Origin: an uncultured delta proteobacterium
GTDB lineage: Bacteria; Myxococcota_A; UBA9160; SMWR01
Assembly (NCBI GenBank): GCA_963832165.1
Contig: CAWHTE010000004.1
Location: 512,001 to 576,000, forward strand
Direction: 5' to 3'
DNA: 64,000 nucleotides
Shown here: piece by piece, positions 1 to 23,982 of the stretch
Position numbering within the stretch: position 1 is the first letter of the stretch
Layout of the letters: each line of letters starts with the position of its first letter
Program-made: the position numbers and the translations under genes
The notes under the pieces: generated by a model
Database searches by the model: none
The model's input: the letters and a program-made list of their open reading frames with translations, nothing else
What the model was told of the DNA's origin: nothing

Positions 1-2193
1 CACGATCACCTGAACCACGCCATATCGCTCGATGACCTCGGTCAATCCGCGAGATGCCCGCCACGCCGCTTCGTGGTCGCCCGCCGACACCTCCGCCAGC
101 GCGAGCGCCGACGCCCTGAAGAGCTCGGCTGACGCATTGCCGCCCTGATCGAGGACGGCGGCCTCGGCGCAGCGACGGCGGGCGTCGGCGAGATCCCCGA
201 CGTGTGCGTCGACATACGCGCGCTGCGCAATGGCCCAGCGTTCCAACGAGCGGTTGGCCGTCGTCGACGCACAGGTGATCGCCTCGTCGGCGATCTCTGC
301 GGCGGCTCCGAAGTTTCCGCATCTCGTCTCGAGCCAGGAGAGCCAGATGAGCGACTGGCCGAGCTCGGCGTCGTCGCCGTGTTCGGTGAGTCGGTTGCAC
401 AGAGCGCGAAACAGATTACGTGCTTCTGCGTGCCTCCCGACGTACATCATCAGGTATGCGGCGAGGCCGCTCGGCGAAGTTTCGGCCAGCGCGACCCGGC
501 TGTGATCTTCGAGCGCGAGCGCGCGCTCGACCTTCGACCAGTCGACTCCCCGCCCTGCCAGGTAGTCGGCCATCGCACAGAAGGCGAGCGCCTCGGCGAG
601 CAGCGGTCGATCGTCGGTTCCGGCGAGGCGCTCGAGCGCCTGATGGCTGTGATCGGCCGCCCCGGCAAAGTCCATGCGGAGGGTCAGGACGTGAGCCAGC
701 TCGACCTGGATCCTCGCCGAGGTCCTCGGATCGTCGGCGATCGCGAGCGCCTCCAAGAGAAGTCGCTCACTTCCGTCGCGATCCTCCTCGTCCAAGGAGA
801 GCTCCGCCAGCAGGCGGAGGGCGTCCGCGCGCTGCCCAGGCGCGATCGCCTCCGCCATCAGCTCCTCGAGCAGGGAGCGGGCGCGGGCGCGATCGCCCGC
901 GTGGCAGTGGAGCTCGGCGGCGCGAATGCCGCGCGCGCGCGCGGCGACTGCGTCGTTCGGCGGCGTGAGATCCCGCGCCCGTTCCAGGAGTTCGGCAGCA
1001 ACGGAAACCCCTCCGCGAGAGCGGGCGGCGGCAGCGCCTTCCTCGAGCAGCCGCGCGATCGCCTCGTCGGGTTCGCTCGTCCCGAACGCCAGATGCTGCG
1101 CGCGCTGGTCGAGCTCCTCCACCACGTCGGCCAGGCGCAGGTGCATCCTGCGCCGCTCGCCCGTCGTGGCCGTGGCGATCACAGCGGCGGCGTGCAGCGG
1201 ATGGGCGAAGCGGACGACCTCCTGCTCGATCGTCGCGATCGTCGCGCGTTCGGCCGGTTCGAGATCGACGTCGGGAGCGCGTCCGCAGACACGTCGCAGC
1301 GTATCGACGGTGGGATGGGTCAGCAGAGCCGCTGCAAGCAAGAGGTCACGGGTCGCCTCGGGTAGCACCACCACGCGCTCGCGCACGAGCGAGCGGATGT
1401 CGTCGGGCACCGGGAGCGGCTCGTTGTGCGGAAGCGGGGGCCGTTCGGCGAGGGCGCGGCCGATCTCGAGCGCGAACAGGGGATTGCCGCCCGACGTGGC
1501 GTGGATGCGCACGAGCGTCGATCGCTGGAAGGTGGTCCCGAGTCGCTCCTTGAGCAGGCGTTGGAGCGCGCCCAGACTGAGCGGAGTCATGCGCACGCGG
1601 GCGAACGTGTCGCGCGGCACGAGCGCCTCGAGATCGAGCTTCACGGGCTCGAGCAGGCGGCGCGTCGCGAGCAGCGCCACGCGTTCGGTCGTCAGACGCC
1701 GGATGACGAAATCGAGGACGCCGACCGAAGCCGCGTCCAACCATTGCACGTCGTCGACGGCCAACAGCACGGGTCTCTCCGCGGCGAGACTCGAGACCAG
1801 CGAACGCATGCCCGCCGCAACCGCCCGTTCCGCGATCGGTCGGTCGCCCGGGTCGACCTCGAGCAGCGCGCTCGCGAGCGCACGCCGCTGCGGCGTGGGC
1901 AGCGCCTTCAACCGTTCGGCGGACATGGCGCCGAGCAGCTCGGCGACCGCAGCGAGCGGCATCGCCACTTCCGAAGCTCCGGGCCGGCAGGAGAGGACGT
2001 GGAACCCATGCGCTTCGGCTCGGCGTAGGGCCTCGCGGAAGAGCGTGGTCTTGCCGATGCCCGCCTCGCCTTCGAGGAGCAGCACGGCCAGACCCTCGCG
2101 TCCGGCAGACAGCAGCTGCTCGATCGCGGTGAGCTCGAGTTCGCGACCGATCAGCTCGGCCGATGCGGAATCAGGTCTTCGCCTGGAGGACAT
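1..2193 (-). CDS. AAA/STAND ATPase transcriptional regulator (LuxR/MalT-like), 3' end beyond window edge
   Basis: Not in the ORF track (no stop in the window). Manual translation from ATG at 2193: MSSRRRPDSASAELIGRELELTAIEQLL...LLLEGEAGIGKTTL (Walker A), GGNPLFALEI, VPDDIRSLVRERV. The C-terminal HTH is not visible. Confidence 0.8.
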   Translation of the reverse strand, partial: MSSRRRPDSASAELIGRELELTAIEQLLSAGREGLAVLLLEGEAGIGKTTLFREALRRAEAHGFHVLSCRPGASEVAMPLAAVAELLGAMSAERLKALPTPQRRALASALLEVDPGDRPIAERAVAAGMRSLVSSLAAERPVLLAVDDVQWLDAASVGVLDFVIRRLTTERVALLATRRLLEPVKLDLEALVPRDTFARVRMTPLSLGALQRLLKERLGTTFQRSTLVRIHATSGGNPLFALEIGRALAERPPLPHNEPLPVPDDIRSLVRERVVVLPEATRDLLLAAALLTHPTVDTLRRVCGRAPDVDLEPAERATIATIEQEVVRFAHPLHAAAVIATATTGERRRMHLRLADVVEELDQRAQHLAFGTSEPDEAIARLLEEGAAAARSRGGVSVAAELLERARDLTPPNDAVAARARGIRAAELHCHAGDRARARSLLEELMAEAIAPGQRADALRLLAELSLDEEDRDGSERLLLEALAIADDPRTSARIQVELAHVLTLRMDFAGAADHSHQALERLAGTDDRPLLAEALAFCAMADYLAGRGVDWSKVERALALEDHSRVALAETSPSGLAAYLMMYVGRHAEARNLFRALCNRLTEHGDDAELGQSLIWLSWLETRCGNFGAAAEIADEAITCASTTANRSLERWAIAQRAYVDAHVGDLADARRRCAEAAVLDQGGNASAELFRASALALAEVSAGDHEAAWRASRGLTEVIERYGVVQVIV

Positions 2194-2264: not shown

Positions 2265-2334
2265 ATTTGAGGGTTTCCGTTATTTCGCCGCCACCTACCC
2301 CGAGCGTACGGTGACCCCCCGAGGAGCAAGGATC

Positions 2335-5300
2335 ATGCTCAGGCGACTGCGGGTGGGTACGGCGGCGGCACTCGTTCTCAGCGCGTGTGTCGGGCCCGGG
2401 GGCGATCGAAACAGCGAGACGGCGGATGCCGCGTGGCTCGCCGAGGCGCAGCGCGAGATCGCGGCGCGCGAGTACCGCGCGAGCGAGAACGGCGAGGGTT
2501 TCCAGGCGCCCAACCGCGCGCACAACCTCCGCACGTACTTCGAACCGACGGGCATCCGCGTGCACGACCGCACCGCGTCGGGCAGCCCGGAGCTACTGCA
2601 GCTCACGCTGACCGGCATGGGTCGCGGCCAGACCCTCGCGGCGGTCGAGCGCGGCACGGGGCCGGTGACGGCCGAGAACCGCGTGGAGATCCATCGTCCG
2701 GGTCTCGTCGAGTGGTACGTGAACTCGCCCGCAGGCCTTGAGCAGGGCTTCACGCTCGCAAAGCGCCAGCACGGCGAGGGCCCGCTCGTCGTGGAGCTCG
2801 CGGTCGCGGGCGCGCGACCGGCTCTGCTCGGAGACGCGGTGATCTTCGACACCGCACAGCGCAAGCTGCGCTACGGCGAGTTGGTCGCCAACGACGCAGA
2901 AGGCACGGTGCTCCCTTCGCACCTCGAGCTCGCCAGTACCGACCAGCTCCGGATCGTGGTCGACGATGCTGCCGCGGCCTACCCGATCGTGATCGATCCC
3001 CTGCTCACGGAGACCGCGGATACGCAGCTCGAGTCGAACCAGGCGAGCGCGGATTTCGGCGTCAGCGTGGCGGCGGCTGGCGACGTGAACGGGGACGGCC
3101 ACGCCGACGTGATCGTCGGCGCCCGGCGGTTCGATGGCGGCGAGAGTGACGAGGGCGCGGCATTCGTGTTCCTGGGCAGCGCGTCGGGAATCGGCAACGG
3201 CGATCCATTCACAGCGGCGGCCCGATTCGAGTCGGACCAGGCGGGCGCGTGGATGGGCGCGAGCGTCGCGGGGGCCGGCGACGTGGACGGCGACGGCTAC
3301 GACGACGTGATCGTCGGGGCCACCTTCTACGACGACGGGCAGACCGACGAGGGCGCGGCGTTCGTGTTCACCGGCAGCGCAACCGGCATCGCGGACGGCA
3401 TTCCCTTCACGGCGGCGGCGCAGCTCGAGTCGAACCAGCCCAACGCGGGTTTCGGCCTGAGCGTGTCCGGGGCCGGCGACACCAACGGCGACGGCTATGG
3501 CGACGTGATCGTCGGGGCCATCGTCTACGACAACGGGCAGACCGACGAGGGCGCGGCGTTCGTGTTCCCGGGCAGCCCGTCGGGAGTCGCATCCAGCAAT
3601 CCCGGCACACCCGGGGTGACGCAGGTCGAGTCGAACCAGGCCAGCGCGGGTTTCGGCTTCAGCGTGGCCGGGGCCGGCGACGTGAACGGCGATGGCTATG
3701 CCGACGCGATCGTGGGCGCCTACGCGTACGATGCGGGCCAGGGCGACGAGGGCGCCGCGTTCGTGTTCCCGGGCGGCGCATCGGGGATCGCCTCGAGCCA
3801 TCCGGCAACGCCCGGGGTGGCGCAGCTCGAGTCGAACCAGGCGGGTGCGTTCCTGGGATACAGCGTGGCGGGGGCGGGCGACACGAATGGGGATGGCTAC
3901 GCCGACGTGATCGTCGGGACCGTCTTCTACGACAACGGGGAAACCAACGAGGGCGCGGCGTTCGTGTTCCTGGGCAGCGCATCGGGGATCGCCTCGAGCA
4001 ATCCGGCGACTTCTGGCGTGGCACAGCTCGAGGCGAACCAGGCGAACGCGACTCTCGGGAACAGCGTGGCGGGGGCCGGCGATGTGAACGGCGACGGCTA
4101 TGCCGACGCGATCGTGGGCGCCAACGGCTACGACGGGGGCCACAGCAACGAGGGCGCCGCGTTCGTGTTCGTGGGCAGCGCGTCAGGGATCGTGGACGGC
4201 GATCCCGCGACGGCGCTGGCACAGATCGAATCGAGTCAGGCGGAAGCGAATCTCGGCTTCAGCGTGGCGGGGGCCGGCGACGTGAATGGCGACGGCTATG
4301 CCGATGTGATCGCGGGCGTCTACCGCTACGACAACGGCGAGACCGACGAGGGCGCCGCGTTCGTGTCCCTCGGCGGGCCCGCGGGCATCGCGTTTGGGAA
4401 CCCAGCGACGGCGGCGGCACAGCTCGAGCCGGAGCAGGCGAGCGCACAGCTCGGCGTGAGCGTCGCTGGAGCGGGCGACGTGAACGGCGACGGTTACGGC
4501 GATGTGATCGTGGGGGCCAGGCTCTATGACGCGGGTCAATCCAGCGAAGGCGCGGCCTTCGTGTTCATCGGGAGTAGCTCGGGGATCGCCGACAGCAATC
4601 CCGCCACTGCGGCAACGCAGCTCGAGGGGGACCAACCGGACGCGCAGCTCGGCGGGAGCGTTGCCTCGGCCGGCGACGTGAACGGGGACGGCTACGCCGA
4701 CGTGATCGTGGGCGCCAGTCTGTACGATGCGCCCGAATCAGCCGAGGGCGCAGCCTTCGTGTTCCTGGGGAGTGCGACGGGGATTGCAGCTGGCAATCCT
4801 GCGACGGCGGCGGCGCAGCTCGAGTCGAACCAGCCGCTCGCGACTCTCGGCGGAAGCGTGGCCGCGGCAGGCGACGTGAACGGGGACGGCTACGGGGACG
4901 TGATCGTGGGCGCCAATCTGTACGACGCGCCCGAATCAGCCGAGGGCGCAGCCTTCGTGTTCCTGGGGAGTGCGACGGGGATTGCAGATGGCAATCCCGT
5001 GACGGCGGCGGCACAGCTCGAGTCGAACCAGCCGGGCGCGAATCTCGGCGCGAGCGTCGCGGGAGCGGGCGACGTGAACGGGGACGGCTATGCCGATCTG
5101 ATTGCCGGGGCGTACACCTACAGCAACGGGCCCACCCCGAGAGAGGGCGCAGCCTTCGTGTTCCTGGGGAGTGCGACAGGGATCGCGGCTGGCAATCCCG
5201 CGACGGCGGCAGCGCAGCTCGAGGCGGACCAGATGGACGCGCAGCTCGGCGTGAGCGTCGCCTCGGCCGGCGACGTGAACGGAGACGGCTACGCCGACGT

Positions 5301-6261
5301 GATCGTGGGTGCCAATTTTTACGACTTGCCTGAAGACGGGGAGGGCGCAGCTTTCGTGTTCCTGGGGAGTGCGACAGGGATCGCGGATGGCAATCCCGCG
5401 ACGGCGGCGGCGCACCTCCAAGTGAACCTGTATGCGCAGCTCGGCACCAGCGTGGCCGGGGCTGGCGACCTGAACGGCGATGGCTACGCCGACGTGATCG
5501 TAGGTGCCCCCGCTTACGATGCCGCCCAGACCGGGGGCGCCGCGTTCGTGTTCCTGGGAAGCGCGACGGGGCTCGGCACGGAGCCCTTTGGATTGCCGTC
5601 AGCGGCGCTCCTGTCGGATCAGGCGAGTTCGAGGCTCGGCTCGAGCGTCGCGGGAGCGGGCGACGTGAACGGGGACGGCTATGCAGACGTGATCGTAGGT
5701 GCCTTCGAATACGATGCGGGCCTGACCGACGAGGGAGCCGCGTTCCTGTTCCTCGGCAACGCAAATACGAAAGGCCGACCGGTGCTCGCGCGGCAGCGGC
5801 GCGGCAACGGCAGCGGCATCGTCGTGCAACCGTGGGGGCGCTCGCGATCCGCGACGGGTTTCGCCGCGGAGCTGCGCGCGAGTCACCCGCAGGGGACAGG
5901 GCGCGTGAAGGCGGAGCTGGAGGCGTGCCCGTCCGATGGGGCGCCCGCGGTGCCGTTCGGTGACGCGAGCTGCACGACCGCGTTCACCCCGAGCTGGGTG
6001 ACCGTGAACGGCACGACCCCCGAGGTGCTGCTCTCGCACACGTTCACGGGTCTCGTGAACAACACGCTCTACCGCTGGCGCGCGCGCGTGCTGCACGCGC
6101 CGGCGGTCGGGACGGTCCCCGCGAACCCCGAGCACGGGCCATGGCGACGACTCGGCGCGCAGTCCGTGGAAGGTGACATCCGGCTGCCCGAGCCCGGATT
6201 GCTGGTCCCACTGATTTCCGGCCTTGCACTCGTCGCGTCGCTCGCGCGCCGGCGGAGGTAG
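2335..6261 (+). CDS. Secreted/surface FG-GAP (integrin-alpha-like) repeat protein 1, 14 repeats, PEP-CTERM-like tail
   Basis: RBS GAGGAG at 2321, ATG 2335; signal peptide ending LSAC (lipobox-like); 14 x G.SVAGAGDVNGDGY.DVIVGA..Y...EGAAFVF; C-terminus IRLPEPGLLVPLISGLALVASLARRRR. Confidence 0.9.
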   Translation: MLRRLRVGTAAALVLSACVGPGGDRNSETADAAWLAEAQREIAAREYRASENGEGFQAPNRAHNLRTYFEPTGIRVHDRTASGSPELLQLTLTGMGRGQTLAAVERGTGPVTAENRVEIHRPGLVEWYVNSPAGLEQGFTLAKRQHGEGPLVVELAVAGARPALLGDAVIFDTAQRKLRYGELVANDAEGTVLPSHLELASTDQLRIVVDDAAAAYPIVIDPLLTETADTQLESNQASADFGVSVAAAGDVNGDGHADVIVGARRFDGGESDEGAAFVFLGSASGIGNGDPFTAAARFESDQAGAWMGASVAGAGDVDGDGYDDVIVGATFYDDGQTDEGAAFVFTGSATGIADGIPFTAAAQLESNQPNAGFGLSVSGAGDTNGDGYGDVIVGAIVYDNGQTDEGAAFVFPGSPSGVASSNPGTPGVTQVESNQASAGFGFSVAGAGDVNGDGYADAIVGAYAYDAGQGDEGAAFVFPGGASGIASSHPATPGVAQLESNQAGAFLGYSVAGAGDTNGDGYADVIVGTVFYDNGETNEGAAFVFLGSASGIASSNPATSGVAQLEANQANATLGNSVAGAGDVNGDGYADAIVGANGYDGGHSNEGAAFVFVGSASGIVDGDPATALAQIESSQAEANLGFSVAGAGDVNGDGYADVIAGVYRYDNGETDEGAAFVSLGGPAGIAFGNPATAAAQLEPEQASAQLGVSVAGAGDVNGDGYGDVIVGARLYDAGQSSEGAAFVFIGSSSGIADSNPATAATQLEGDQPDAQLGGSVASAGDVNGDGYADVIVGASLYDAPESAEGAAFVFLGSATGIAAGNPATAAAQLESNQPLATLGGSVAAAGDVNGDGYGDVIVGANLYDAPESAEGAAFVFLGSATGIADGNPVTAAAQLESNQPGANLGASVAGAGDVNGDGYADLIAGAYTYSNGPTPREGAAFVFLGSATGIAAGNPATAAAQLEADQMDAQLGVSVASAGDVNGDGYADVIVGANFYDLPEDGEGAAFVFLGSATGIADGNPATAAAHLQVNLYAQLGTSVAGAGDLNGDGYADVIVGAPAYDAAQTGGAAFVFLGSATGLGTEPFGLPSAALLSDQASSRLGSSVAGAGDVNGDGYADVIVGAFEYDAGLTDEGAAFLFLGNANTKGRPVLARQRRGNGSGIVVQPWGRSRSATGFAAELRASHPQGTGRVKAELEACPSDGAPAVPFGDASCTTAFTPSWVTVNGTTPEVLLSHTFTGLVNNTLYRWRARVLHAPAVGTVPANPEHGPWRRLGAQSVEGDIRLPEPGLLVPLISGLALVASLARRRR

Positions 6262-6263
6262 TC

Positions 6264-9200
6264 ATGCGCATTCGAGGTCTAGCGATCGTGAGCTCGTCGT
6301 TCCTCGTGGTCTGCGCGAGCCCGGATCGGAGCGAACGGGAGGCTGTCGATGCGAGCTTCCTCGCGCGCGCACAGGAGCAGATCGCCGCGCGCGAGTACCG
6401 CGCGAGCGAGAACGGGCAGGGCCTCCAGGCGCCGAACCGCGCGCACAACCTACGCACCTACTTCGACAAGACGGGCATCCGCGTGCACGACCGCACCGCG
6501 GAGGGGAGCCCGGAGCTGCTGCAGCTCACGCTTGCGGGTGTAGGCCGCGGCGAGGCGTTGGCAGCGGTCGAGCCCGGCGCTGCGCCGGTAACGGACGGGG
6601 ACCGCGTAGAGATCCATCGTCCGGGTCTCGTCGAGTGGTACCTGAACACCGAGGCCGGGCTCGAGCAGGGCTTCACGCTCGCGGAGCGTCCGCGCGGCGA
6701 GGGTCCGCTCGTCGTCGAGCTCGCGGTCGCGGGCGCGCGACCGACACTGGTCGGCGATGCGGTGATCTTCGAGTCGGAAGAGCAGCGCCCGCTGCGCTAC
6801 GGCGAGCTGGTCGCCAATGACGCGGACGGCAAGGTGCTTCCCGCGCACCTCGAGCTCTCGGGTGACGACCGGCTACGCATCGCCGTCGACGACGCCGACG
6901 CGGCCTACCCGATCGTGATCGATCCGCTGCTGACCGCGACGCATGACCTGCTCCTCTTTGGAACCCAGACCAGCTCGCAGTTCGGCATCAGCGTGGCGGG
7001 CGCGGGCGACGTGAACGGTGACGGCTATGCCGACGTGATCGTCGGCGCCAGCGGCTACGACGACGGCCAGAGCAACGAGGGCGCCGCGTTCGTGTTCCAC
7101 GGCAGCGCCTCCGGGATCATCGGCAACAGTCCGGCCACGGCCAATGCCGCGCTCACCTCGGATCTGTCGGGCATCGGCTTCGGCATCAGCGTCGCGGGCG
7201 CCGGCGACGTGAACGGCGACGGCTATGCCGACGTGATCGTCGGCGCGAGTGGCTACAGCGCGGGTGCGGGCGCGGCGTTCGTGTTCTACGGGAGCGGGAC
7301 GGGGATCGTGGGGATCAACCTCGCGTCGGCGCACCAGCTCACCTGCACGCAGGTGAGCACCAGTTTCGGCTTCAGCGTCGCGGGCGCGGGCGACGTGAAC
7401 GCGGACGGTTTCGACGACGTGGTCGTGGGCGCCTGGCTGTACGACAACGGCCAGACCGATGAGGGCGCGGCGTTCGTGTTTCGCGGCAGCGCGTCCGGGG
7501 TGGGGACCCGCACACAACTCGCGGCCAACACGCAGCTCGAGTCGAACCAGGCCAACGCGGCGTTCGGGTTCAGCGTGGCGGGCGCGGGCGACGTGAACAG
7601 CGACGGCTATGCCGACGTGATCGTGGGCGCGCAGTGGTACGAGGTCAACCCACCGTTTACGCCGCCGACGGAGGGCGCCGCGTTCGTCTACCACGGCGGT
7701 GCCGGCGGAATGGTGCTCGATGCGACGATCGGCGGCGGCCAAGCTGACATGTGGTTCGGCCGGAGCGTCGCGGGCGCGGGCGATGTGAACGGCGACGGCT
7801 TTGCCGACGTGATCGTCGGCGCCCCGTTCTTCGACTTCCCCAACGTTCCCGGCCGGGAAGGGGCCGCGTGGGTATTCGAAGGGAATCCGGGTGGTGTCGT
7901 GAGCCAGGTCGCCAGCGCGGCGTTCCCGGTGCTGATCGGCGACGAGCAGGCGGACGCGCAGTTCGGCAATCGCGTGGCCGGAGCCGGCGACGTGAACGGC
8001 GACGGCTACGCCGACGTGATCGTGGCCACTTCGCTGAACGACAGTGCGGGCACCGATACGGGCGTGGCGTTCGTGTATCCCGGTACAGCAGCGGGCATCT
8101 CCGCGGTGGGGTTCGCGCGGCTCCAGGGCAACCAGCCGAGCCGGGAGTTCGCTTCCGGCGTGGCCGGCGCCGGCGACGTGAACGGCGACGGCTATGCGGA
8201 CGTGATCGTGGGCGCGCAGTTCTACGACGCGGCGACCGCCGTCGACGGCGCGGCGTTCGTCTATCACGGCGGCGGGAGAGGCACGGGCTTTCGGACCGTC
8301 GACGTGAGCTCCCATGTCGTGACGGGTGGGAATAGTGTGGCGTCGGCGGGCGACGTGAACGGCGACGGCTACGGCGACGTGATCGTGGGTACCCCGTTCT
8401 ACGACAACGGCAGCGACCCGAACGAGGGATGGGCGTGGGTGTTCCACGGGAGTGCGTCGGGAATCATCGTGAACGACTATCAGATTCTCGAGTCGAATCG
8501 GGAGGACGCGCGATTCGGCTCCAGTGTGGCCGGCGCCGGGGACGTGAACGGTGACGGCTATGGCGATGTGATCGTCGGAGCGCCTTACTACGGCATCAGC
8601 TGGGCCGACTCCGGCGCGGCGTTCGTGTTCCTGGGCAGCGCGTCGGGCGTCGCGGGCACCCAGCCATCCAATGCGCATGCGACTCTGGGTGGAGACCAGC
8701 TGAACGGCCATCTCGGATCGGACGTGGATTCGGCGGGCGACGTGAATGGCGATGGCTACGCCGATGTGATCGTCGGGGCGTATACGTACAGCCACGGCCA
8801 GTCGAGCGAGGGAGCGGCGTTCGTGTTCCACGGGAGTGGGACGGGAATCGGCAACCGGACGAGCGCGACCCCAGACGCTCTGCTCGAGTCGGACGACGCC
8901 TTCGCGTATTTCGGCAATGAGGTGGCAGGCGCTGGGGACGTGAACGGGGATGGCTACAGCGACGTGATCGTAGGGGCGACGCAAAACTACGGTGCTGGTG
9001 AGGCCGGGGCCGTATTCGTGTTCCCGGGCAGCGCATCGGGGATCGCCGACGGCAATCCTGGATCGATCGGAGTGACTCAGCTCGAGTCGGGCCCGGCCGG
9101 TAATTTCTGGGGTGTCGCGGACGGCGCGGGTGACGTGAACGGTGATGGCTACGGCGATCTGATCGCTGGCGGCCACACTGGGGGCCAGAACCGAGTGTTC

Positions 9201-10106
9201 GTATTCAACGGCGGCACGTCGGGAATCGCGGACGGAGACGCCGGCACGGCGTCAGCCACGATTCTGGGACAAGGGCTTGCCGCCAGCCTGGGCGGCAGAG
9301 TCGCGGGGGCTGGTGACCTCAATGGCGATGGGAACGCCGACGTGTTGGCCGCGGCGCCGAACTACGGAAACGGCCAGACGAGGGAGGGCGCCGTGTTCGT
9401 GTTTCACGGCAGTGCGTTCGGAATCGCGAGCGGCGATGCCCTGATCGTTGCGAATGGGCGGATCGAGGGGGGCCAGGATGAACTGTTCTTCGGGATCCCG
9501 GCGTCTGCGGGAGATGTGAACGGAGACGGCTACGCCGACGTGATCGTAGGAGCGCCGTCCTACGATTATCTCCCGGTCGTGGACCAGGGCGCGGCGTTCC
9601 TGTTCCTCGGCAATGGCGGTGGCCGCTCCGTTCTCGCGCAGCAGAGGCGCGCCGACGGTACGGGTGACGTGGTGCAGCCGTGGGGGAAGGCGGAGTCCGC
9701 GACGGTCGAGTTCAGGGCCAGCCATCCCGCCGGCACTGGCCTCGTGCGCGGCCAGTTCGAGGCGTGCCCGACCGGCGTGCCGTTCGGAAGCGGTAGCTGC
9801 ACGACCGCGCTCTCGCCGACGTGGGAGCCAGTGGGCCTAATAGGATTCGAACCCGACAGGCTGCTGCCTCACACGTTCACCGGCCTCTCGAGCAACATGC
9901 TCTACCGCTGGCGCGCGCGCGTGCAGTATGCGCCGTTGAGCGGCCCGATCGCGACCAACCCATTCCATAGCCCGTGGCGGCGGCTCGGCGCGCAGTCGGT
10001 GGAGGCGGACATACGCCTGCCCGAGCCGGGGGTGTTGCTCTCGCTCGTTAGTGGATTTGCACTCGTCTCGGCGCTCTCGCTCCGGCGGAGCCGACCCGTT
10101 CGATAG
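6264..10106 (+). CDS. FG-GAP repeat protein 2, 14 repeats, PEP-CTERM-like tail
   Basis: Intact 1280-aa ORF with the same architecture as protein 1; ends IRLPEPGVLLSLVSGFALVSALSLRRSRPVR. Confidence 0.9.
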   Translation: MRIRGLAIVSSSFLVVCASPDRSEREAVDASFLARAQEQIAAREYRASENGQGLQAPNRAHNLRTYFDKTGIRVHDRTAEGSPELLQLTLAGVGRGEALAAVEPGAAPVTDGDRVEIHRPGLVEWYLNTEAGLEQGFTLAERPRGEGPLVVELAVAGARPTLVGDAVIFESEEQRPLRYGELVANDADGKVLPAHLELSGDDRLRIAVDDADAAYPIVIDPLLTATHDLLLFGTQTSSQFGISVAGAGDVNGDGYADVIVGASGYDDGQSNEGAAFVFHGSASGIIGNSPATANAALTSDLSGIGFGISVAGAGDVNGDGYADVIVGASGYSAGAGAAFVFYGSGTGIVGINLASAHQLTCTQVSTSFGFSVAGAGDVNADGFDDVVVGAWLYDNGQTDEGAAFVFRGSASGVGTRTQLAANTQLESNQANAAFGFSVAGAGDVNSDGYADVIVGAQWYEVNPPFTPPTEGAAFVYHGGAGGMVLDATIGGGQADMWFGRSVAGAGDVNGDGFADVIVGAPFFDFPNVPGREGAAWVFEGNPGGVVSQVASAAFPVLIGDEQADAQFGNRVAGAGDVNGDGYADVIVATSLNDSAGTDTGVAFVYPGTAAGISAVGFARLQGNQPSREFASGVAGAGDVNGDGYADVIVGAQFYDAATAVDGAAFVYHGGGRGTGFRTVDVSSHVVTGGNSVASAGDVNGDGYGDVIVGTPFYDNGSDPNEGWAWVFHGSASGIIVNDYQILESNREDARFGSSVAGAGDVNGDGYGDVIVGAPYYGISWADSGAAFVFLGSASGVAGTQPSNAHATLGGDQLNGHLGSDVDSAGDVNGDGYADVIVGAYTYSHGQSSEGAAFVFHGSGTGIGNRTSATPDALLESDDAFAYFGNEVAGAGDVNGDGYSDVIVGATQNYGAGEAGAVFVFPGSASGIADGNPGSIGVTQLESGPAGNFWGVADGAGDVNGDGYGDLIAGGHTGGQNRVFVFNGGTSGIADGDAGTASATILGQGLAASLGGRVAGAGDLNGDGNADVLAAAPNYGNGQTREGAVFVFHGSAFGIASGDALIVANGRIEGGQDELFFGIPASAGDVNGDGYADVIVGAPSYDYLPVVDQGAAFLFLGNGGGRSVLAQQRRADGTGDVVQPWGKAESATVEFRASHPAGTGLVRGQFEACPTGVPFGSGSCTTALSPTWEPVGLIGFEPDRLLPHTFTGLSSNMLYRWRARVQYAPLSGPIATNPFHSPWRRLGAQSVEADIRLPEPGVLLSLVSGFALVSALSLRRSRPVR

Positions 10107-10135
10107 AGTTCGCGCTTCCCTCGGGGACCCCATCG

Positions 10136-10984
10136 GGCGCCGCGCTCACCGAGCTGTTCTCGATCCGCGAGGGCGCTGGCGTTTCCGACGCGGGCGGCGT
10201 GCTGCGCGGCAAGGCGCTCATGGCGCTCGATGCGCACGGTGCGGATCGCATAATGATCCCGATCGGAGCCGACCGGCTCGCCGTGGTGCGCACGGATGCC
10301 GCGGAGCTCACGATCACGCGGCTCGCGACGATCGACGCCACGCGCTGCACGGCCGAGGTGACGCTAGACGGTGTCGCGCCCGAAGCCGTGCTCGACGGTG
10401 CGGGCGCCGCGATCGCGCGCGCGCTCGACGCAGGCCGCATCGCGCTTGCGGCCGACGCGCTAGGCGCGTGCGAGGCGATGATCGAGCAGTCGGTCGCCTA
10501 CGCGCAGCAGCGCAAGCAGTTCGGGCGCGCGATCGGCTCGTTCCAGGCCGTGAAGCACATGTGCGCCGAGATGATCGCGGCGCTCGAGCCCGCGCGGTCG
10601 CTGCTCTGGTACGCCGCGCACAGCTTCGACGCGCTGCCCGACCAGGCGCCCCAGATGGCCTGCCACGTGCTCGAGCACGTCTCCGAGATCGGTCGCGAGA
10701 TCGCGAGCACGGCTACGCAGGTGCACGGCGGAATCGGCTGGACCGACGAGCAGAATCTGCACTTCTGGTTCAAGCGCATCGCGGTCGCGCGCCATCTGCT
10801 GGGCGGGCCGGAGCTGCTGCGCGAGCGCGCGGCGGAGCTCCAGGGGCTCGTGCTCCCGCCTAGCGTGAATCGGCCACACTTCGGTTTCGTTGCCCTGATA
10901 GAGTGTGCGGCAAGTCGGGGTACGTATGCGCGCGCAGCTATTGCGGTTCTTGGCACTTGGGTCGTGTCTGGTCTGGGGCTCTGA
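10136..10984 (+). pseudogene. 5'-truncated acyl-CoA dehydrogenase (middle and C-terminal domains)
   Basis: GAALTELFS..LRGKALM, YAQQRKQFGRAIGSFQAVKHMCAEM and QVHGGIGWTDEQNLHFWFKR. No N-terminal domain or RBS. Homology begins about 30 nt after the upstream stop and fades after ...ELQGL (~10850). Confidence 0.7.
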
Positions 10985-13900
10985 TCGATCGCGGATCCGA
11001 CCGGGAACGAGAACTGGCTCGCACGCGCCCAGGAGCAGCTCGCGGCGCGCGAGTACCGCGCAAGCGAGAACGGGCAGGGCCTGCAGGCGCCCAACCGCAC
11101 GCACAACCTGCGCACGTACTTCGAGAAGACCGGAATCCGCGTGCACGATCGCACCAGTGCGGGCAGCCCGGAGCTGATGCGTCTCTCACTCGCGGGTGTC
11201 GGACGCGGCGAGGATCTCGCGCCGGCGGCGCCCGGAGAGCGGGTGACCGCCGACGGCAGCCGGGTCGAGATCCATCGGCCTGGTCTGATCGAGTGGTACG
11301 TCAACGCGCCCGAAGGCCTCGAGCAGGGCTTCACGTTCGCCGAGCGACCGAAGGGCGACGGCCCGCTCGTCGTGGAGATCGAGGTTGCGGGCGCGCGCGC
11401 TGACGCTGCTCGGCGATGCGGTGATCTTCGAGACGGAGGCCCAGCGAAAGCTCCGCTACGGCGAGCTGGTCGCCAACGACGCGGAGGACGAGCATTCTGC
11501 CCGCGCACCTCGAGATCGCCAGTACGGATCAGCTGCGAATCGTCGTCGACGATGCCGGCGCGACCTACCCGATCGTGATCGATCCGCTGCTGACCGAGAC
11601 GGAGGACGCGATCGTCTTCACGGCCCAGGGGGCCTCGTCGTTCGGGTTCAGCGCGGCCAACGCCGGCGACGTGAACGGCGACGGTTATGCCGACGTGATC
11701 GTCGGCGCCATCGCGTACGACGACGACCAGTCCAACGAAGGCGCCGTGTTCGTGTACCACGGCAGCGCGTCGGGAATCGATACCGGTGTGGGCACCGAGA
11801 ACGCGATGCTCACGTCGGATGTGAACGGTGGCATCGGCTTCGGCGTCAGCATCGCGGGCGCCGGGGACGTGAACGGCGATGGTTATGCGGACGTGATCGT
11901 CGGCGCGACGGCCGGGAACGCGTCCTATGTGTTTCACGGAAGCGCGACGGGGATCGTAGGTACGAATCCGGCGTCGGCGGCAGCGCAGCTCACGTGTACG
12001 GTGGCGGGTGAGTCATTCGGAATCAGCGTCGCGGGGGCCGGCGACACCAATGCCGACGGCTACGACGACGTCATCGTGGGTGCCTGGGTCTACGACAACG
12101 GTCAGATCAACGAGGGCGCCGTGTTCGTATTCCGGGGCAGTGCGTCCGGGGTGGGGACGCGGACGCAGCTGCTCGCCAATCAGATGCTCGAGTCGAATCA
12201 GGCCACGGCGGCGTTTGGGATCAGCGTGGCGGGCGCGGGCGACGTGAACAGCGACGGCTATGCCGACGTGATCGTCGGTTCGCAGTGGTGGGAGGCCGGC
12301 CCGCTGCCGTCGCCGCAGACGGAGGGCGCCGCATTCGTCTACCACGGTGGTCCCGGTGCCCTGGTGCTCGACGCGACGGTTCGCGGCGGTCAGGCCAACA
12401 TGTGGCTCGGCAGGAGCGTTGCGGGCGCGGGCGACGTGAACGGCGACGGCTTTGCCGACGTGATTGCGGGCGCCCCGAACTTCGACTTCCCCAATGTTCC
12501 CGGCGCCGAAGGCGGCGCATGGGTGTTCTACGGCGGCCCCAATGGCATCGTGAACCAGGTCGCCAGCGCCGCGTTTCCGGTGCTGATCGGAGACGAGGAG
12601 CCGAACGCGCAGTTCGGCAATCGCGTGGCGGGGGCCGGCGACGTGAACGGCGACGGCTACGCCGACGTGACCGCGGCGGCTCCGTTCGACGACGACGCGA
12701 ACCCCGATGAAGGCGCGGTGTTCGTGTATCTCGGGACACCATTGGGAATCTCCGGAGTGCCGTTTGCGAGGGTCGACGGCAACCAGGGGAGCCCGGACTT
12801 CGGCTCGGGACTGGCCGGAGCCGGCGACGTGAACGGCGACGGCTATGCGGACGTGATCGTGGGCGCATCGGTGTTCGACGCGGGCGCTATCAACGACGGC
12901 GCGGCGTTCGTCTACCACGGCGGCGGGTCGGGCCTCGGGTTCGCGAACGTCGTCAGTCCAGGATCCCTCCTCAACCCGGGGGTGAGCAATTCAGACTTCG
13001 GTAGAAGCGTGTCCTCCGCGGACGTGAATGGCGACGGCCATGCCGATGTGATCGTGGGCGATCCCGGCTACGACAACGGCCAGACCGATGAGGGCGCGGC
13101 GTTCGTCTGGCACGGAAGTGCCTCCGGGATCAACGAGCCCGCCGTCGACACGTTGCTGCAGTCCAATCAGTCTGGCGCGTTGTTTGGCAAGAGCGTGTCA
13201 GGCGCCGGGGACGTGAACGGTGATGGCTATGCCGATCTGATCGTTGGCGCGGAGAGCTACGACGCGTTTCCGCCGTTTCAGAATGAGGGCACGGCCTTCG
13301 TGTTCATGGGCAGCGCGTCCGGCATCGCGGATGGCAATCCCACTACCGCCAACGCGCGGATCATCGGGGACTCAACTAACGATTATATCGGCACGAGCGT
13401 CGCGTCGGCTGGCGACGTGAATGGTGACGGCTACGGCGATGTGATCGTCGGCGCTGAATTCTTCGGGGTGAACGACGAGGGCGCTGCGTTCGTCTTCCAC
13501 GGCAGTGCATCGGGGATGTCGAATGTCAGTCCCTACTACGCGGGGACGCACGGGGGGACGCATCTCGTTTCGGACCAGATTGCGCGTATGGGTCATAGCG
13601 TGGCTGGGGCGGGCGACGTGAACGGCGACGGCTACGGCGACGTGCTCGTGGGCGCTCCCGACTACGATTCGCCGGAGGCGGATGGAGGCGCGGCCTTCGT
13701 GTTTCTCGGCAGCGCGTCGGGGATCCCGTATTCGACCCCGACGACAGCGGCGACCCGGCTCGTGTCGAATGCCGCGTCCACGCGGCTGGGCTGGAGCGTG
13801 AGTGGGGCGGGCGATGTCAACGGGGACCGCTACGGCGACGTGATCGTAGGCCGCGAAGGCTTTCTCGGCGCTGCGTACGTATTCCACGGCAGCGCGACGG

Positions 13901-14758
13901 GCATCGCCGACGCAAACGCTGCGACAGCGGCGACGCAGCTCGAGTCTTCCGAGTTTACGTTCGGCGAGAGCGTGTCGGGTGCCGGGGACGTGAACGGGGA
14001 TGGCTACGGCGACGTGGTCGTGGGCGCGCCGTCCTACTTCATCGATGCGGACAGCGAGGGCGTGGCATTCGTGTTCCATGGGAGCGCGTCGGGCATCGCG
14101 AGCGGACACCCTCAGACTGCGGCAACGCGGATCTACGGAAACAACCTGGACGGATTGGCAGCCAGCGTGAGTGCGGGCGACGTCGAACGGTGACGGCATT
14201 CCCGACGTGATCATGGGAAGGCCGGCGAGCTTTGGCCATGCGTCCGTCTTCCTACACTCTTCGCCCGATCGACCCGTCCTCGCGCGCCAGCGGCGCGGCG
14301 ACGGCAGCGGCATCCCAGTGCAGCCTTGGGGGGGGGCGGTGTCCGCGACGAGCTTCGCGGCCGAGCTCCGGGGCAGCCACCCGGCGGGCACCGGCCGCGT
14401 GCGGGGCGAGTTCGAGGCGTGTCCGGCCGGCGTGCCGTTCGGCAGCGGCAGCTGCACGACCGCGCTCTCGCCGGCCTGGGAGGCGCTAGGCGCGTTTCTT
14501 GCTCCCGATATTCTTCTGCCTCACATGTTCAATGCCCTCACGAGCAACAAGCTCTATCGCTGGCGCGCGCGTGTGCAGTACGCGTCGTCGACTGGCACAC
14601 CCTCCCCGAATCCCGCACACGGCCCCTGGCGCAGGCTCGGCGCGCAATCGGTGGAAGCCGACATCCGGCTGCCCGAGCCTGGAATTGTGCTTGCGCTCGT
14701 AAGCGGAGCCGCGCTGCTCGCCGTGCTCGCGCGTCGCCGGAGCCGACCTGTTCAGTAG
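10926..14758 (+). CDS. FG-GAP repeat protein 3, 14 repeats, PEP-CTERM-like tail (4 frameshifts)
   Basis: Joined from ORF pieces 10905, 11141, 11385, 11575 and 14171, with shifts near 10990, 11400, 11490 and 14186. Collinear with protein 2; ends IRLPEPGIVLALVSGAALLAVLARRRSRPVQ. Confidence 0.8.
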
Positions 14759-14771
14759 GCGAGGCTCAGCG

Positions 14772-17700
14772 ATGCGCGCGTGGCTGGTTGCAGTTGGGGT
14801 GGCCGCCGCGTGTCTGGGCCTCGGCCGCGCACAGCCGGATCGCGCGGAGCCGGGCTCGGGCGACGACTGGCTCGAGCGCGCGCAACGTCACCTCGCCGAG
14901 CGTGAGTATCACGCCACCGACAACGGGCAGGGCCTCCAGGCGCCCAACCGCGCGCACAACCTGCGCACCTACTTCGAGAAGACCGGCATCCGCGTGCACG
15001 ATCGCACGGCGGGCGGCAGCCCCGAGCTGTTGCAGCTCTCGCTCGCGGCGGTCGGACGCGGCGAATCGCTCGAGGCGGTCGCGCCCGGCACGCCGACCGC
15101 GCAGAAGGGACCGCGTCGAGATCCGGCGCTCCGAGATCGTCGAGTGGTACGTGAACTCCGCGGCCGGACTCGAGCAGGGCTTCACGCTCGCCGAGCGCCC
15201 GAAAGGCGAGGGCCCGCTCGTCGTGGAGCTCGCGGTCGCGGGTGCGCGGCCTGCGCTGCACGGCGATGCGGTGATCTTCGAGACCGGCGCGCAGCGCAAG
15301 CTCCGCTACGGCGAGCTGATCGCGAACGACGCGGATGGCGACGTTCTCGCCGCGCACCTCGAGATCGCCAATACCGACCAGCTCCGGATCGTCGTCGACG
15401 ACGCGGACGCGACCTATCCGATCGTGATCGATCCGCTGCTCACCGAGACCGCGGACACCCAGCTCGAGGGAGACCAGTCGACGGCACGACTCGGGCGACG
15501 GCGTCGCCTCGGCCGGCGACGTGAACGGCGACGGCTACGCCGACGTGATCGTCGGCGCGCGGCTCTACGACGCCGGGCTGACCGACGAGGGCGCCGCATT
15601 CGTGTTTCTCGGAAGCGCTTCCGGAGTCGCGGACGGCAGTCCATCGACGCCCGGCGTGACGGTGCTCGATTCGAATCAGCAGGCGTCCGACTTCGGTCGG
15701 AGCGTCGCGGGTGCGGGCGACGTGAACGGCGATGGCTACGGCGACGTGATCGTCGGGGCGAACGCCTACGACGCCGGGCTAGGTGCCGCCGGGCGCGGCA
15801 TTCGTGTTTCTGGGCAGCGCCTCGGGGATCGCGAATGCGGATCCGTCGACCCCCGGCGTCGCGCAGCTCGACTCGGACCAGGCGAGCGCACAGCTGGGCC
15901 AGAGCGTCGCGGGAGCGGGCGACGTGAACGGCGACGGCTATGCCGACGTGATCGTGGGCGCCCACTTCTACAACGCCGGCGACGCAGCGGAGGGCGCCGC
16001 GTTCCTGTTCCTGGGCAGCGCGACGGGGATCGCGGACACCACCGCCGCGTCGGCGGCCGCGCGGTTCGAGTCGAATCAGGCGAATGCACTGCTGGGGATC
16101 AGCGTGGCGGGCGCCGGAGACGTGAACGGCGACGGCTTCTCCGACGTGGTCGTGGGCAGCGAGAACTACGGCGGCGGCCAGAGCAACGAAGGGGCGGCAT
16201 TCGTCTTCCACGGCAGCGCATCGGGGATCGCCAACGGGAATCCGGGCACCGCGGAGACCCAGCTCGAGGCGAACCAGGCGACCGCGCTGCTCGGCAGCAG
16301 CGTCGCGAGCGCGGGCGACGTGAACGGGGACGGCTATGCCGACGTGATCGTCGGCGCGCGGCTCTACGACGCGGGAACGGCGGACGAGGGCGCGGCGTTC
16401 GTCTTCCTGGGCAGCGCGACGGGAGTGGCCGACGGCAATCCGGTCACGGCCGCCGCTCAGCTCGAATCCAATCAGGGGACCTCGCAGTTCGGGTCCAGCG
16501 TCTCGGGCGCGGGCGATACGAACGGCGACGGCTATGCCGACGTGATCGTGCGGCGCCTATCAGTACGACGCGGGCCAGACCGACGAGGGCGCCGCGTTCG
16601 TGTTCCGGGGCAGTGCATCCGGAGTCGCCGATGGCAATCCCGCGACCGCGGCAGCCCAGCTCGAGTCGAATCAAGCCAGCGCGCGCATGGGCTACCGCGT
16701 GGCGGCCGCCGGAGATGTGAACGGCGACGGCTACGGCGACGTGATCGCGAGCAGCCATTTCTACGACGGCGGGACCTCCGACGAGGGCGCCGTGTTCGTC
16801 TACCACGGCGGCGCGGCGGGGATCGCCGACAGCGATCCGATCTCCGCGGCAACCCGGCTTCTGTCGCTCCAGGCGAACGGGGAACTCGGCCACAGCGTCG
16901 CCGGGGCGGGCGACGTGAACGGGGACGGCTATGCCGACGTGATCGCGGGTGCGCAGCTCTACGACGCGGGACAGGCGGACGAGGGCGCCGCATTCCTGTT
17001 CCTCGGCAGTGCGTCCGGAATCGGTGACGGGGACCCCTCGACCGCGGCAGCGCAGCTCGAGTCGAACCAGGTCGGCGCGAATCTCGGCTACAGCGTGGCC
17101 GGGGCGGGCGACGTGAACGGGGACGGCTATAGCGACGTGATCGTCGGCGCCCGCTACTACGACGGGCCCGATGTGGACGAGGGCGCGGCGTTCGTGTTCC
17201 TGGGCAGCGCGTCGGGGATCGCGGACGGCAATCCCGCGACGGCGGCGACCCGGCTCGAGTCGAACCAGGCGAACGCGCAGTTCGGCGTCAGCGTCAACGG
17301 CGCAGGCGACGTGAACGGGGACGGCCATGCCGACGTGATCGTGAGCGCCAGCTACTACGATGCGCCCGAGTTCGACGAAGGCGCAGCGTTCGTGTTCCTC
17401 GGCAGTGCATCGGGGATTCCCAATGGCAACCCCGCGACGGCCGCAACCCAGCTCGAGTCGAACCAGGCGAGTTCGGTTTTTGGTTGCAGCGTCGCTTCGG
17501 CGGGCGACGTGAATGGGGACGGCTACGGGGACGTGATCGTGGGCGCCTTTCAGTACGCCGCGGGTCAGACGGACGAGGGCGGGGCATTCGTATTTCTGGG
17601 CAGTGCGTCGGGAGTCGCGAACAGCAATATCGCGACGGCGGCGACCCGGCTCCAATCCGATCAGGCGACCGCGGAGTTCGGCCACAGCGTGGCAGGGATG

Positions 17701-18747
17701 GACGTGAACGGCGACGGCTATTCCGACGTGATCGCGGGCGCCTTTCACTATGACGCCGGCCAGACGGACGAGGGCGTGGCGTTCGTGTTCCTCGGCAGTG
17801 CGTCGGGGATCGCCGATGGGAATCCCGCGACGGCGGCGACGCAGCTCGAATCGGATCAGCCGAACGCGAGCCTCGGCAAGAGCGTGGCCGGCGCGGGCGA
17901 CGTAAATGGGGACGGCTACGCCGATGTGATCGTGGGCGCCTGGGAGTACGACGCGGGCGGGGGCATCCGCCACGGCGCCGCGCTGGTGTTTCTGGGAAGC
18001 GCGTCGGGAATAGCCGACGGCACGTTCGGTAGTGCGGCGGCTCGGCTCGTCTCGAACCTCGAGGACGCGAAGCTCGGCAGGAGCGTGGCCGGCGCGGGCG
18101 ACGTGAACGGCGACGGCTACGCCGACGTAATCGTAGGTGCGCCGCACTACGGCTGGTCTACCGAGGGCGCGGCGTTCCTGTTCCTCGGCAACGGCTCCGG
18201 CCGACCCGTGCTCGCGCGCCAGCGGCGCGGCGATGGCAGCGGGACTCCGGTGCAACCGTTCGGGCTCTCGCACGCCGCGGGATTCACTGCCGAGCTGCGC
18301 GCGAGCCATCCGGCGGGTCGCGGCCGCGTAAAGGCCGAGCTGCAGGCATGCCCTCCTGCCGTCGCGTTCGGAAACGGGAGCTGTACGACGCTCTTCTCGC
18401 CGAGCTGGGTGACCGTGAACGGCGCGACGCCCGACGTGCTGCTCTCGAACACGTTCGCCGGGCTCACGAACAACACGCTCTACCGCTGGCGCGCGCGCGT
18501 GCTGCACGCGCCGTCGACGGGAACGATTCCGGTGAACCCCACGCACGGCCCGTGGCGTCGCTACCAGGCGCAGTCGGTCGATGCCGACGTGCGCGTGCTG
18601 CCCGAGCCGGGCTTCGTGCTCTCGCTCGCGTGCGGCGTCGTGCTGCTCGCCGCGCTCGCCCTCAGGCGCCGAGGTCCTGTCCACCCGATCGGATCAGCTT
18701 CTCGAGACGTGCGAGGCGAGGACCCTCGGGGCCGTCGATCTTCGTGA
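14772..18747 (+). CDS. FG-GAP repeat protein 4, 14 repeats, PEP-CTERM-like tail (4 frameshifts)
   Basis: Joined from ORF pieces 14772, 14326-frame, 15521, 15783 and 16600, with shifts near 15105, 15497, 15785 and 16550. Ends VLPEPGFVLSLACGVVLLAALALRRRG...; overlaps the convergent gene by 86 nt. Confidence 0.8.
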
Positions 18748-19228
18748 GCCAGCCGCGGATGTAGTCGTAGTCGAGCGGCGCGTCGCTGGCGTAGAGAATG
18801 CCGGCGATGTCGCGCCAGTCCTTGTCGCGGCCGAACGTCGCCTTGTAGGTGATCAGGTCTTCGGCGGAGAGGATATGGATCGGATCGCCGTAGAAGTCGA
18901 CGCGTCGGCGGCGTTCCATCGAGCTCATGTGCAGCGGGTCGTAGGCGAAGAACAGGTCGATCGGCGTCTCCTCCCAGAACACGCGCACCTGCTCGTCGCG
19001 CGTGACCTGCTTCAACAATCTCGGGTGGGTCACGGCGGCTCCGAGTTCACGCAGCACTGCGAACACACGCGGCGCTTCCGCGGCCGGCAGGAACACGTTG
19101 AGGTCGATGTCGTGGGTGGCCCGCACGCTGCCGTAGTAGCCGAGCGCCTGGGCACCGCCGAAGGCGTGGGGAATTTCGGCGTCGATGAAGGCGCGCTCGA
19201 TCGCGACGATCTGCTCGTCGAGCAGCAT
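18662..19228 (-). CDS. Pol-beta-superfamily nucleotidyltransferase (DUF6036/AbiEii-like)
   Basis: FGGAQALGYYGSVRATHDIDL (GG.A...G..R.T.DID motif), EETPIDLFF, SAEDLITYKATFGRDKDWRDI. Confidence 0.75.
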   Translation of the reverse strand: MLLDEQIVAIERAFIDAEIPHAFGGAQALGYYGSVRATHDIDLNVFLPAAEAPRVFAVLRELGAAVTHPRLLKQVTRDEQVRVFWEETPIDLFFAYDPLHMSSMERRRRVDFYGDPIHILSAEDLITYKATFGRDKDWRDIAGILYASDAPLDYDYIRGWLTKIDGPEGPRLARLEKLIRSGGQDLGA

Positions 19229-19236
19229 GAGATCAA

Positions 19237-19343
19237 CTCTCGTAGGGCGGATCAGCCCGAAGGGCGTGATCCGCCATTCCGGCGAGCGCGATGGTGGAAT
19301 GGCGGATTACGCTCGCTTCGCTCGCTAATCCGCCCTACGAGAG
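19237..19343. repeat. REP doublet (REPIN/BIME-like), GGCGGAT subtype
   Basis: GTAGGGCGGATCAGCCCGAAGGGCGTGATCCGCC (19242-19275) and inverted GGCGGATTACGCTCGCTTCGCTCGCTAATCCGCCCTAC (19301-19338). The flanks CTCTC/GAGAG and ATTCC/GGAAT also pair. Confidence 0.85.
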
Positions 19344-23848: not shown

Positions 23849-23982
23849 TGGCCGAGCGTATTTCGACCGGTCTTCGAGAGAAGTCGGAACGCGCTGCGCA
23901 TTCCGCTCATTGGTGGTGGAAAGCGCATTAACTGGCGGCAAGCCGCGCGGTGGGGCTCAAACCAACGTGCCGCGGCCGCAAC

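Follow-up and report, generated by a model that had tools for sequence, protein, structure and literature searches.

Fourteen-blade FG-GAP paralogues with hypervariable blade tips and PEP-CTERM tails: a candidate repertoire of variable surface binders in an uncultured delta proteobacterium

The stretch of DNA considered here, 64,000 nucleotides long and called the window throughout (C4:512001-576000, C4 being contig CAWHTE010000004.1), belongs to the genome of an uncultured delta proteobacterium (5.5 Mb, 89% complete, 70% GC) and carries four paralogous genes whose products combine an N-domain of ~190 aa, 14 FG-GAP blades, a C-domain of ~135 aa and a PEP-CTERM tail. Based on the distribution of sequence variability in the blades, these paralogues are probably a repertoire of variable surface binders, in which four hypervariable positions per blade would provide the binding faces. 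A fifth paralogue, intact and with 14 blades in 1327 aa, is found on contig C11. The initial annotation, made from the sequence of the window, had described a four-gene array and quoted the motifs of its products, all of which were found where it had placed them. The four paralogues stand, but the array is not unbroken, as a 715-bp dehydrogenase copy lies between genes 2 and 3; similarly, the N-domain is common to all four, but the domain proper, which follows a signal/linker segment, measures ~190 aa and not the ~230 aa proposed. Genes 1 and 2 are separated by 2 bp, and genes 3 and 4 have four frame breaks each, with in-frame stops absent after read-through. The features of the locus are the following.

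1..2193, minus strand, continuing off the window to C4:511401: STAND (AAA_16)-LuxR regulator, 930 aa (PF13191, E 2.6e-21; GerE at the off-window end, E 2.2e-16)
2267..2283, plus strand: 17-nt box TTGAGGGTTTCCGTTAT, likely operator of the regulator, 51 nt 5' of the gene 1 ATG
2307..2312, plus strand: -10-like hexamer TACGGT, 23 nt 3' of the box
2335..6261, plus strand: gene 1 (protein P1), 1308 aa, intact, with a signal peptide at the N-terminus; N-domain 2434-3003, 14 blades 3004-5775, C-domain 5776-6183, PEP-CTERM 6184-6258
6264..10106, plus strand: gene 2 (P2), 1280 aa, intact, the protein of the structure model; N-domain 6357-6929, 14 blades, C-domain 9624-10016, PEP-CTERM 10017-10103
10135..10849, plus strand: copy of the 3' part of an acyl-CoA dehydrogenase gene, its source at C4:510305-511019, 11.8 kb upstream
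10926..14758, plus strand: gene 3, ~1278 aa read through, 14 blades, common architecture (TIGR02595, 20.4 bits); frame breaks near 10992, 11399, 11491 and 14185
14772..18747, plus strand: gene 4, ~1324 aa read through, 14 blades, common architecture; frame breaks near 15103, 15491, 15789 and 16551

Hypervariable tips on two predicted seven-blade rings

Pattern counting gives 14 blades in P1, P2 and P4 and 13 in gene 3, where an extra variant blade (NGDRYGD) inside row b11, counted by eye, makes up the 14 originally claimed for each protein; Pfam PF01839 covers 14 stretches in P1 and 14 in P2. The two closed 7-blade propellers that had been expected from structure prediction were obtained in an AlphaFold2 model of P2 (residues 45-1244, 56 sequences; pLDDT 86.3, pTM 0.60). 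Ring 1 (model residues 182-633) finds its best match in integrin alpha4, with Z 41.4 and an rmsd of 2.6 Å over 384 residues, and other 7-blade propellers align to ring 2 (residues 630-1073). The model's only internal stretches of low confidence are residues 628-642, which form the hinge at blade 7, and 1074-1077, just before the C-domain. The Gly-Gly linker reported for blade 7 is present in all four proteins, with GG found also in further blades of P1, P2 and P3; family-wide, it occupies blade 7 in 46 of 59 proteins and each of the other 13 positions in 6-14 of the 59.

Blade number in homologues clusters at 7 and 14, rarely 21; it does not vary freely, the outcome that would have spoken against the initial annotation. 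Three overlapping sets of proteins were examined, the first restricted to 719-2289 aa, after exclusion of open-ended (27/120, 49/150 and 32/83) and bladeless (0, 45 and 4) entries. The C-domain occurs mostly together with 14 blades (59/65, 23/34 and 19/22), rarely with 13 (3, 5 and 1) or 21 (0, 1 and 1), and closed proteins lacking it commonly have 7 (16/28, 16/22 and 21/25); family exceptions with 3-12 blades exist. The module is present in 17 of 61 related genomes, with 1-4 matches each outside its own genome, and it forms tandem arrays or fusions in several (L075/L088, L086, L092, L093). Named homologues are mostly from Myxococcota, several of them annotated 'integrin alpha', and the module is also met in records of Gammaproteobacteria, Planctomycetota and Chloroflexota. 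Giant proteins made of 2-4 units of N-domain plus propeller were seen in addition (P0128, P0214, P0233, P0252, P0260, P0121, P0122, L086), some with FG-GAP_2 blades and cysteine-rich spacers. A recent duplication from 7 to 14 blades was considered and rejected, blades i and i+7 being no closer than average (0.734).

The case for binding faces is built on the pattern of variation. Across 826 blades from 59 proteins, entropy reaches 3.82, 3.88, 3.55 and 3.76 bits at blade columns 5, 8, 29 and 30, respectively, whereas the calcium loop stays below 0.5. Of the 826 blades, 809 have a complete calcium motif; the full set displays 756 distinct four-letter tips, the four columns being variable at each of the 14 blade positions. 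The blade-by-blade residue changes that had been quoted for P1 are indeed present. The four columns correspond to residues one and four of the integrin cage motif, its proline and the residue next to it; they thus belong to cage segments A and B, which the description of the blade in PMC3192720 places at the end opposite the calcium site. In the P2 model they sit next to the points where strand 1 begins and strand 2 ends. Motif and strand position together map the variable sites opposite the calcium loops, on one face, which agrees with what had been anticipated. The tips are 22.2% aromatic, against 3.0% in seven other variable blade columns and 3.1% in 11 variable columns of the N-domain, and only 2 of 295 N- and C-domain columns attain 3.3 bits. 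In a separate sample (450 blades, 69 loci), composed of disjoint pairs chosen on one scaffold block with pS (the synonymous proportion) taken from a second, the non-synonymous proportion pN of the tips was larger than the pS of the independent block in all five bins (0.34/0.10, 0.59/0.39, 0.64/0.40, 0.64/0.43 and 0.67/0.54).

These numbers bear immediately on the idea that the paralogues are structural matrix or floc proteins, in which function resides in the calcium-bound scaffold and the tips, under no constraint, are free to drift. The genome has 39 PEP-CTERM matches, and the literature on such proteins, in the portion consulted, links them to exopolysaccharide and floc formation (PMC11980579); moreover, the scaffold is strongly conserved and positive selection at the tips is not formally established. 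Surface sites that do drift freely here are however polar, with 3% aromatic residues as opposed to 22% at the tips, and the tip entropy exceeds that of nearly all N- and C-domain columns. We therefore regard a purely structural role as unlikely. Variation might alternatively serve escape, from phage or predators, or the tips might act as decoys, rather than capture a target. Surface location, fast change confined to one face, the patchy presence among relatives and the possible loss of genes 3 and 4 would all be in keeping with this, but the enrichment in exposed aromatics suits a binder better than an evader, and variation is limited to four columns per blade and does not extend to every loop, which makes evasion a very unlikely purpose.

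The fold match to integrin alpha heads (Z ~40) could suggest true integrin-alpha counterparts, with the central cage as docking site for a VWA (beta-like) subunit. This is extremely improbable. The cage accounts for three of the four hypervariable columns, and the cage motif itself is not kept: its proline occurs in only 253 of 826 blades, and column 8 is aromatic in 221. No VWA gene was found among 43 upstream neighbours, and the tail is PEP-CTERM, not that of an integrin. Integrin beta (PF00362) was not found in the genome, 89% complete as it is, general VWA proteins lying outside that survey.

How the tips came to differ is addressed by comparison of blades. For 110 of 826 blades, the closest counterpart is another blade of their own protein (chance, 1.6%), and blade identity is 0.734 within a protein compared to 0.718 at the same position elsewhere. 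Homogenisation within proteins is therefore weak, and strict concerted evolution as in HET-E was rejected. In the tip codons, C or G predominates at the third position, and all bases occur at positions 1-2. Diversification by a retroelement appears unlikely: the genome, at its 89% completeness, gave no match to reverse transcriptase RVT_1, and a 35-kb self-comparison contained no near-identical template besides the dehydrogenase copy.

A second, unrelated repertoire was noticed in the same genome. It consists of about eight PEP-CTERM proteins with ~12 VCBS-type repeats (DLDGDGDLD) and a shared unusual basic leader, encoded at C11:801832 (plus), C11:492643 (minus), C3:482289 (minus), C4:356339-364437 (plus; approximately three in tandem, frameshifted), C4:147562 (minus) and C7:72784 (minus). 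This family varies at comparable positions, in the same two loops, and the tip pattern is thus understood as general, not unique.

Domains, surface sorting and proposed mode of action

The N-domain constitutes an unnamed family of more than 12,000 clusters with a confidently predicted fold (folded alone, pLDDT 96.5 and pTM 0.89). A profile search of 1.84 billion representatives returned 12,201 clusters at E 0.001, a number that falls to 8,720 at 1e-10. Where top matches have enough downstream sequence, a family blade follows directly in 92 of 101; six of the other nine run into a different repeat, and the four checked are FG-GAP_2, some of them in tandem N-plus-propeller units. The predicted fold is a beta-supersandwich, like that of galactose mutarotases, glycosidase accessory domains and the periplasmic domain of YidC. 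The best structural match has Z 11.7 and an rmsd of 3.4 Å over 180 residues, with many others within 1-2 Z at 5-12% identity (best Foldseek E, 1e-3), and the modelled likeness is one of fold class, not of function. The N-domain sequence gave nothing significant against Pfam and PDB; its resemblance to DUF7948 (PF25778) is weak (E 0.18 in 2 of 21 members) and, with an Atlas feature score of 0.84, is a lead only. The C-domain is all-beta and has a Cys pair. Its likeness to FN3 is weak also, involving the last strands only (FN3con, E 8e-4; titin, E 5e-3; Atlas 0.77).

The LPEPG-TM-RR tail described initially is present, but its identity as a PEP-CTERM (exosortase) sorting signal had been missed. 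Genes 1, 2 and 3 score 17.2, 17.7 and 20.4 bits against TIGR02595 (cut-off, 16 bits), and a hydrophobic helix with a basic tail is found in all five paralogues. The genome has seven matches to exosortase PF09721, six over the cut-off, two of these six being halves of one split gene. In homologues the tail can be swapped for another sorting signal, T9SS in P0114 and JDVT-CTERM in P0245, both over the cut-off. Judged from these signals, the paralogues are likely anchored on the cell surface. An N-terminal lipobox was also considered; the cysteine motif, found in 34 of 120 homologues and in 13 in shuffles, is too patchy to warrant the label of lipoprotein.

In the mode of action we propose, the proteins would be exported by Sec, then cleaved and anchored by an exosortase at the PEP-CTERM tail. 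Blades 1-7 and 8-14 are predicted to close into two rings of integrin type, each blade likely locked by calcium at the invariant DxNGDGxxD loop. To judge from chain topology, the N-domain, the Gly-Gly hinge at blade 7 and the FN3-like C-domain should exit on the calcium-loop side as pedestal and stalk, thus leaving both opposite faces free. There, variation is nearly unrestricted at 28 positions per ring, with Tyr, Trp, Phe and His strongly represented. Other cells or particles might be recognised by the tips through their surface proteins or glycans, with the target differing between paralogues. New specificities would arise by point substitution, occasional duplication or conversion of blades and exchange of whole propellers between paralogues, with no retroelement involved; P2 and P3 are 74% identical in ring 1 and 51% in ring 2. 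Expression of genes 1 and 2, in this genome, would be activated by the STAND-LuxR regulator from the box 5' of gene 1.

Regulator, box and history of the locus

The 17-nt box was exposed as a common 17-mer by comparison with a locus (L029) at which a regulator 59% identical is located 5' of a family gene. Exactly two copies occur in the 5.5 Mb, flanking the regulator on both sides, one 5' of P1 and the other 5' of a small SCO4226-like gene just past the regulator stop; one more genome site matches with two mismatches. A metagenome scan gave at least 121 matches, 25 in high-GC and 96 in low-GC sequence. Among the matches listed, 14 of the 25 high-GC boxes lie beside a regulator homologue (two of these rows are one contig, and several are near kin), compared to 1 of the 96 low-GC ones. 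A TAnnnT hexamer stands 23 nt after both boxes of the present genome and, again among the matches listed, 22 nt after 8 of the 14 other regulator-adjacent boxes and at 4 of the 96 low-GC ones. Family genomes (n=44) have the box only here (G000) and in G027, in both cases beside a family gene; elsewhere, the small gene or proteins with signal-peptide-like starts are found 3' of it. Taken from these sequence relationships, genes 1 and 2 are likely switched on by the neighbouring STAND-LuxR regulator through the conserved box. An 18-bp palindrome at 2250-2267 was dropped as candidate operator, being unique to the locus, and a scan for sigma-70 promoters found nothing. The box was seen to mark a wider STAND-LuxR regulon with the small SCO4226-like gene (L107, L118, L121, L128, L148, L171, L174, L179, L208, L210, L221, L223), some of these loci having tandem secreted repeat proteins with a box each.

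The dehydrogenase copy between genes 2 and 3 matches the upstream gene, ungapped, at 705 of 715 positions (98.6%). Since 8 of the 10 differences are synonymous and 2 non-synonymous, the copy points to an allele from a different strain more than to a local duplicate in decay, and it may be a scar of either recombination or assembly. In our reading, the chromosome would already have carried genes 3-4 behind the dehydrogenase and then received a cassette of regulator, P1 and P2 through one homologous and one illegitimate junction; the alternative is that two strains were merged during assembly. A locus that resembles a mosaic of two strain alleles fits also with receptors for kin or self, engaged like-to-like between cells by analogy to Myxococcus TraA, a precedent documented in PMC11980579. 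The C-terminal sorting of a polymorphic surface protein and the Myxococcota labels of homologues agree with such a role. However, a single identity tag would lose definition with five divergent paralogues per cell, neither a TraB-like gene nor any other recurrent partner was found beside homologues, and the module occurs also in Gammaproteobacteria, Planctomycetota and Chloroflexota, so that kin recognition retains only a very small probability.

Several findings weigh against the paralogues being variable binders, or against parts of the proposed mechanism. The tips were assigned to their face by motif and strand position, not by coordinates, and the pTM of 0.60 leaves the mutual orientation of rings and domains unfixed. 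Variable columns of the C-domain (n=9) are 11.3% aromatic. The pN excess is clearest in the 4 closest pairs, of which there are only 4, and synonymous divergence inside the tip codons is 0.29-0.64, nearly the non-synonymous level; because of synonymous near-saturation in the GC-rich DNA and this high pS of tip codons, the selection signal is suggestive only. The tails of gene 4 and of the C11 copy, two of five, match only related PEP-CTERM models and do so below cut-offs, including that of TIGR02595. Genes 3 and 4 have 8 frame breaks in 7.8 kb, compared with a background elsewhere of at least 0.07 per kb, a lower bound derived from 59 frame changes over 842 kb (52 of 674 paralogue loci). By this density they are either decaying or poorly polished, and they may be dead. 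No box of their own was found for genes 2, 3, 4 and the C11 copy. Of 43 scanned ORFs (picked from 60 loci with enough flank), only 2 have an AAA_16 regulator as their upstream neighbour, and no family-wide regulator or partner gene was found among the homologue neighbourhoods. The regulator link is thus local, not family-wide: the STAND control suspected from the outset is supported at the sequence level for genes 1-2, through box and -10-like element, but not as a general link.

Other genes were noticed in passing. Directly after the array, two short genes on the minus strand (window 18662-19830) look by eye like a nucleotidyltransferase and a helix-turn-helix protein, a toxin-antitoxin-like pair; a Pfam match at 1e-5 was not found for them. 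An ORF at 23321-23941 of the window, also on the minus strand, resembles by eye a REP-associated tyrosine transposase and is close to repeated gagagcgaagcgatccc-type sequences, visible as recurring translations. On C11, a separate frame of 277 codons with a PEP-CTERM-like end lies 3' of the fifth paralogue on the same strand (L001:11691-12524). A plus-strand frame at C1:511500-514500 has an SpvB/Rhs-like start and FG-GAP-like motifs and appears by eye to encode an Rhs or TcB-type protein.

Comparison with known systems

The new kind of system that was first envisaged is not supported, in that bacterial integrin-type propellers, including tandem 14-repeat forms, were described by Chouhan et al. 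2011 (PMC3192720), with four 14-repeat entries in one genome (Rhodobacterales HTCC2654), and the anchor is the known PEP-CTERM; repetitive FG-GAP propellers are moreover a known class in the relevant part of PMC9218822. Shared with the propellers of PMC3192720, as characterised in its pertinent sections, are the FG-GAP/cage blades, a calcium motif in every blade, an N-terminal strand closing the rings and the reading of 14 repeats as two rings. Those proteins were placed in the cytoplasm, and no transmembrane segment was found in them, unlike the present paralogues, all of which have a hydrophobic helix followed by basic residues; sections 6 and 9 of that work describe neither an N-domain or C-domain nor a sorting signal, variability of the tips or regulation. 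Without precedent in the literature found are the architecture, the N-domain family, the coupling of C-domain and 14 blades, and the box: no NCBIfam family covering the whole architecture was found, nor literature on the architecture, DUF7948 or the box, in a search that reached few subscription journals. Since 2011, no role has been assigned to the bacterial integrin-type propellers, which were believed cytoplasmic. Surface-sorting signals, seven-blade units and variation at four positions per blade now make the question of their role testable. The box offers a candidate operator for an uncharacterised STAND-LuxR family, and a calcium-locked, near-symmetric scaffold with natural paratope-like positions might be of use as a binder scaffold.

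Integrin alpha contains only one ring, with thigh and calf domains behind it and a membrane tail of integrin type. Its head (PDB 3v4v, 4wk0, 1jv2) shares with the model the 7-blade fold (Z 40-41, rmsd 2.2-2.8 Å, ~25% identity), calcium loops on one face and a sandwich domain between ring and membrane. The present proteins differ in having two rings, all 14 calcium loops, hypervariable cage positions, an extra supersandwich N-domain, one FN3-like domain of 135 aa and the PEP-CTERM tail.

With PEP-CTERM/exosortase proteins (TIGR02595; PMC11980579, as far as its relevant part goes) the paralogues have in common the PEP motif, transmembrane helix and basic tail, alongside exosortases in the genome; they differ in an architecture outside NCBIfam families and in homologues that exchange the tail for other sorting signals. 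The Streptomyces UmbA lectins (PMC13274773) and the actinobacterial EsrA sensors (PMC13622651) likewise use variable propellers for recognising the surfaces of other microbes. Their propellers are of other families, and no recurrent toxin, VWA/MoxR or kinase partner is found beside the present homologues.

The closest working analogy is provided by HET-D/HET-E (HNWD) of Podospora, which, according to the part of PMC12222747 consulted, have several paralogues, two 7-blade propellers built from similar repeats, an interaction face with four hypervariable codons in each repeat and a link to a STAND/NLR ATPase. The differences from that account are these: WD40 repeats of >80% identity fused to NACHT and HET there, FG-GAP repeats only, with 73% scaffold identity, here; a likely extracellular location and a STAND protein that is a separate, unfused upstream transcription regulator; and repeats that are much older and only weakly homogenised. 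An extension of the analogy to a full HET-E-like bacterial receptor repertoire, namely exosortase-displayed, antibody-like double propellers with 56 hypervariable tip positions, exchanged as cassettes between strains and switched on through the NLR-like STAND-LuxR regulator and its conserved operator upon contact with prey, parasites or non-kin, is quite unlikely to be right in its entirety. If it were, thousands of propellers would have in the supersandwich N-domain a pedestal or folding partner dedicated to them.

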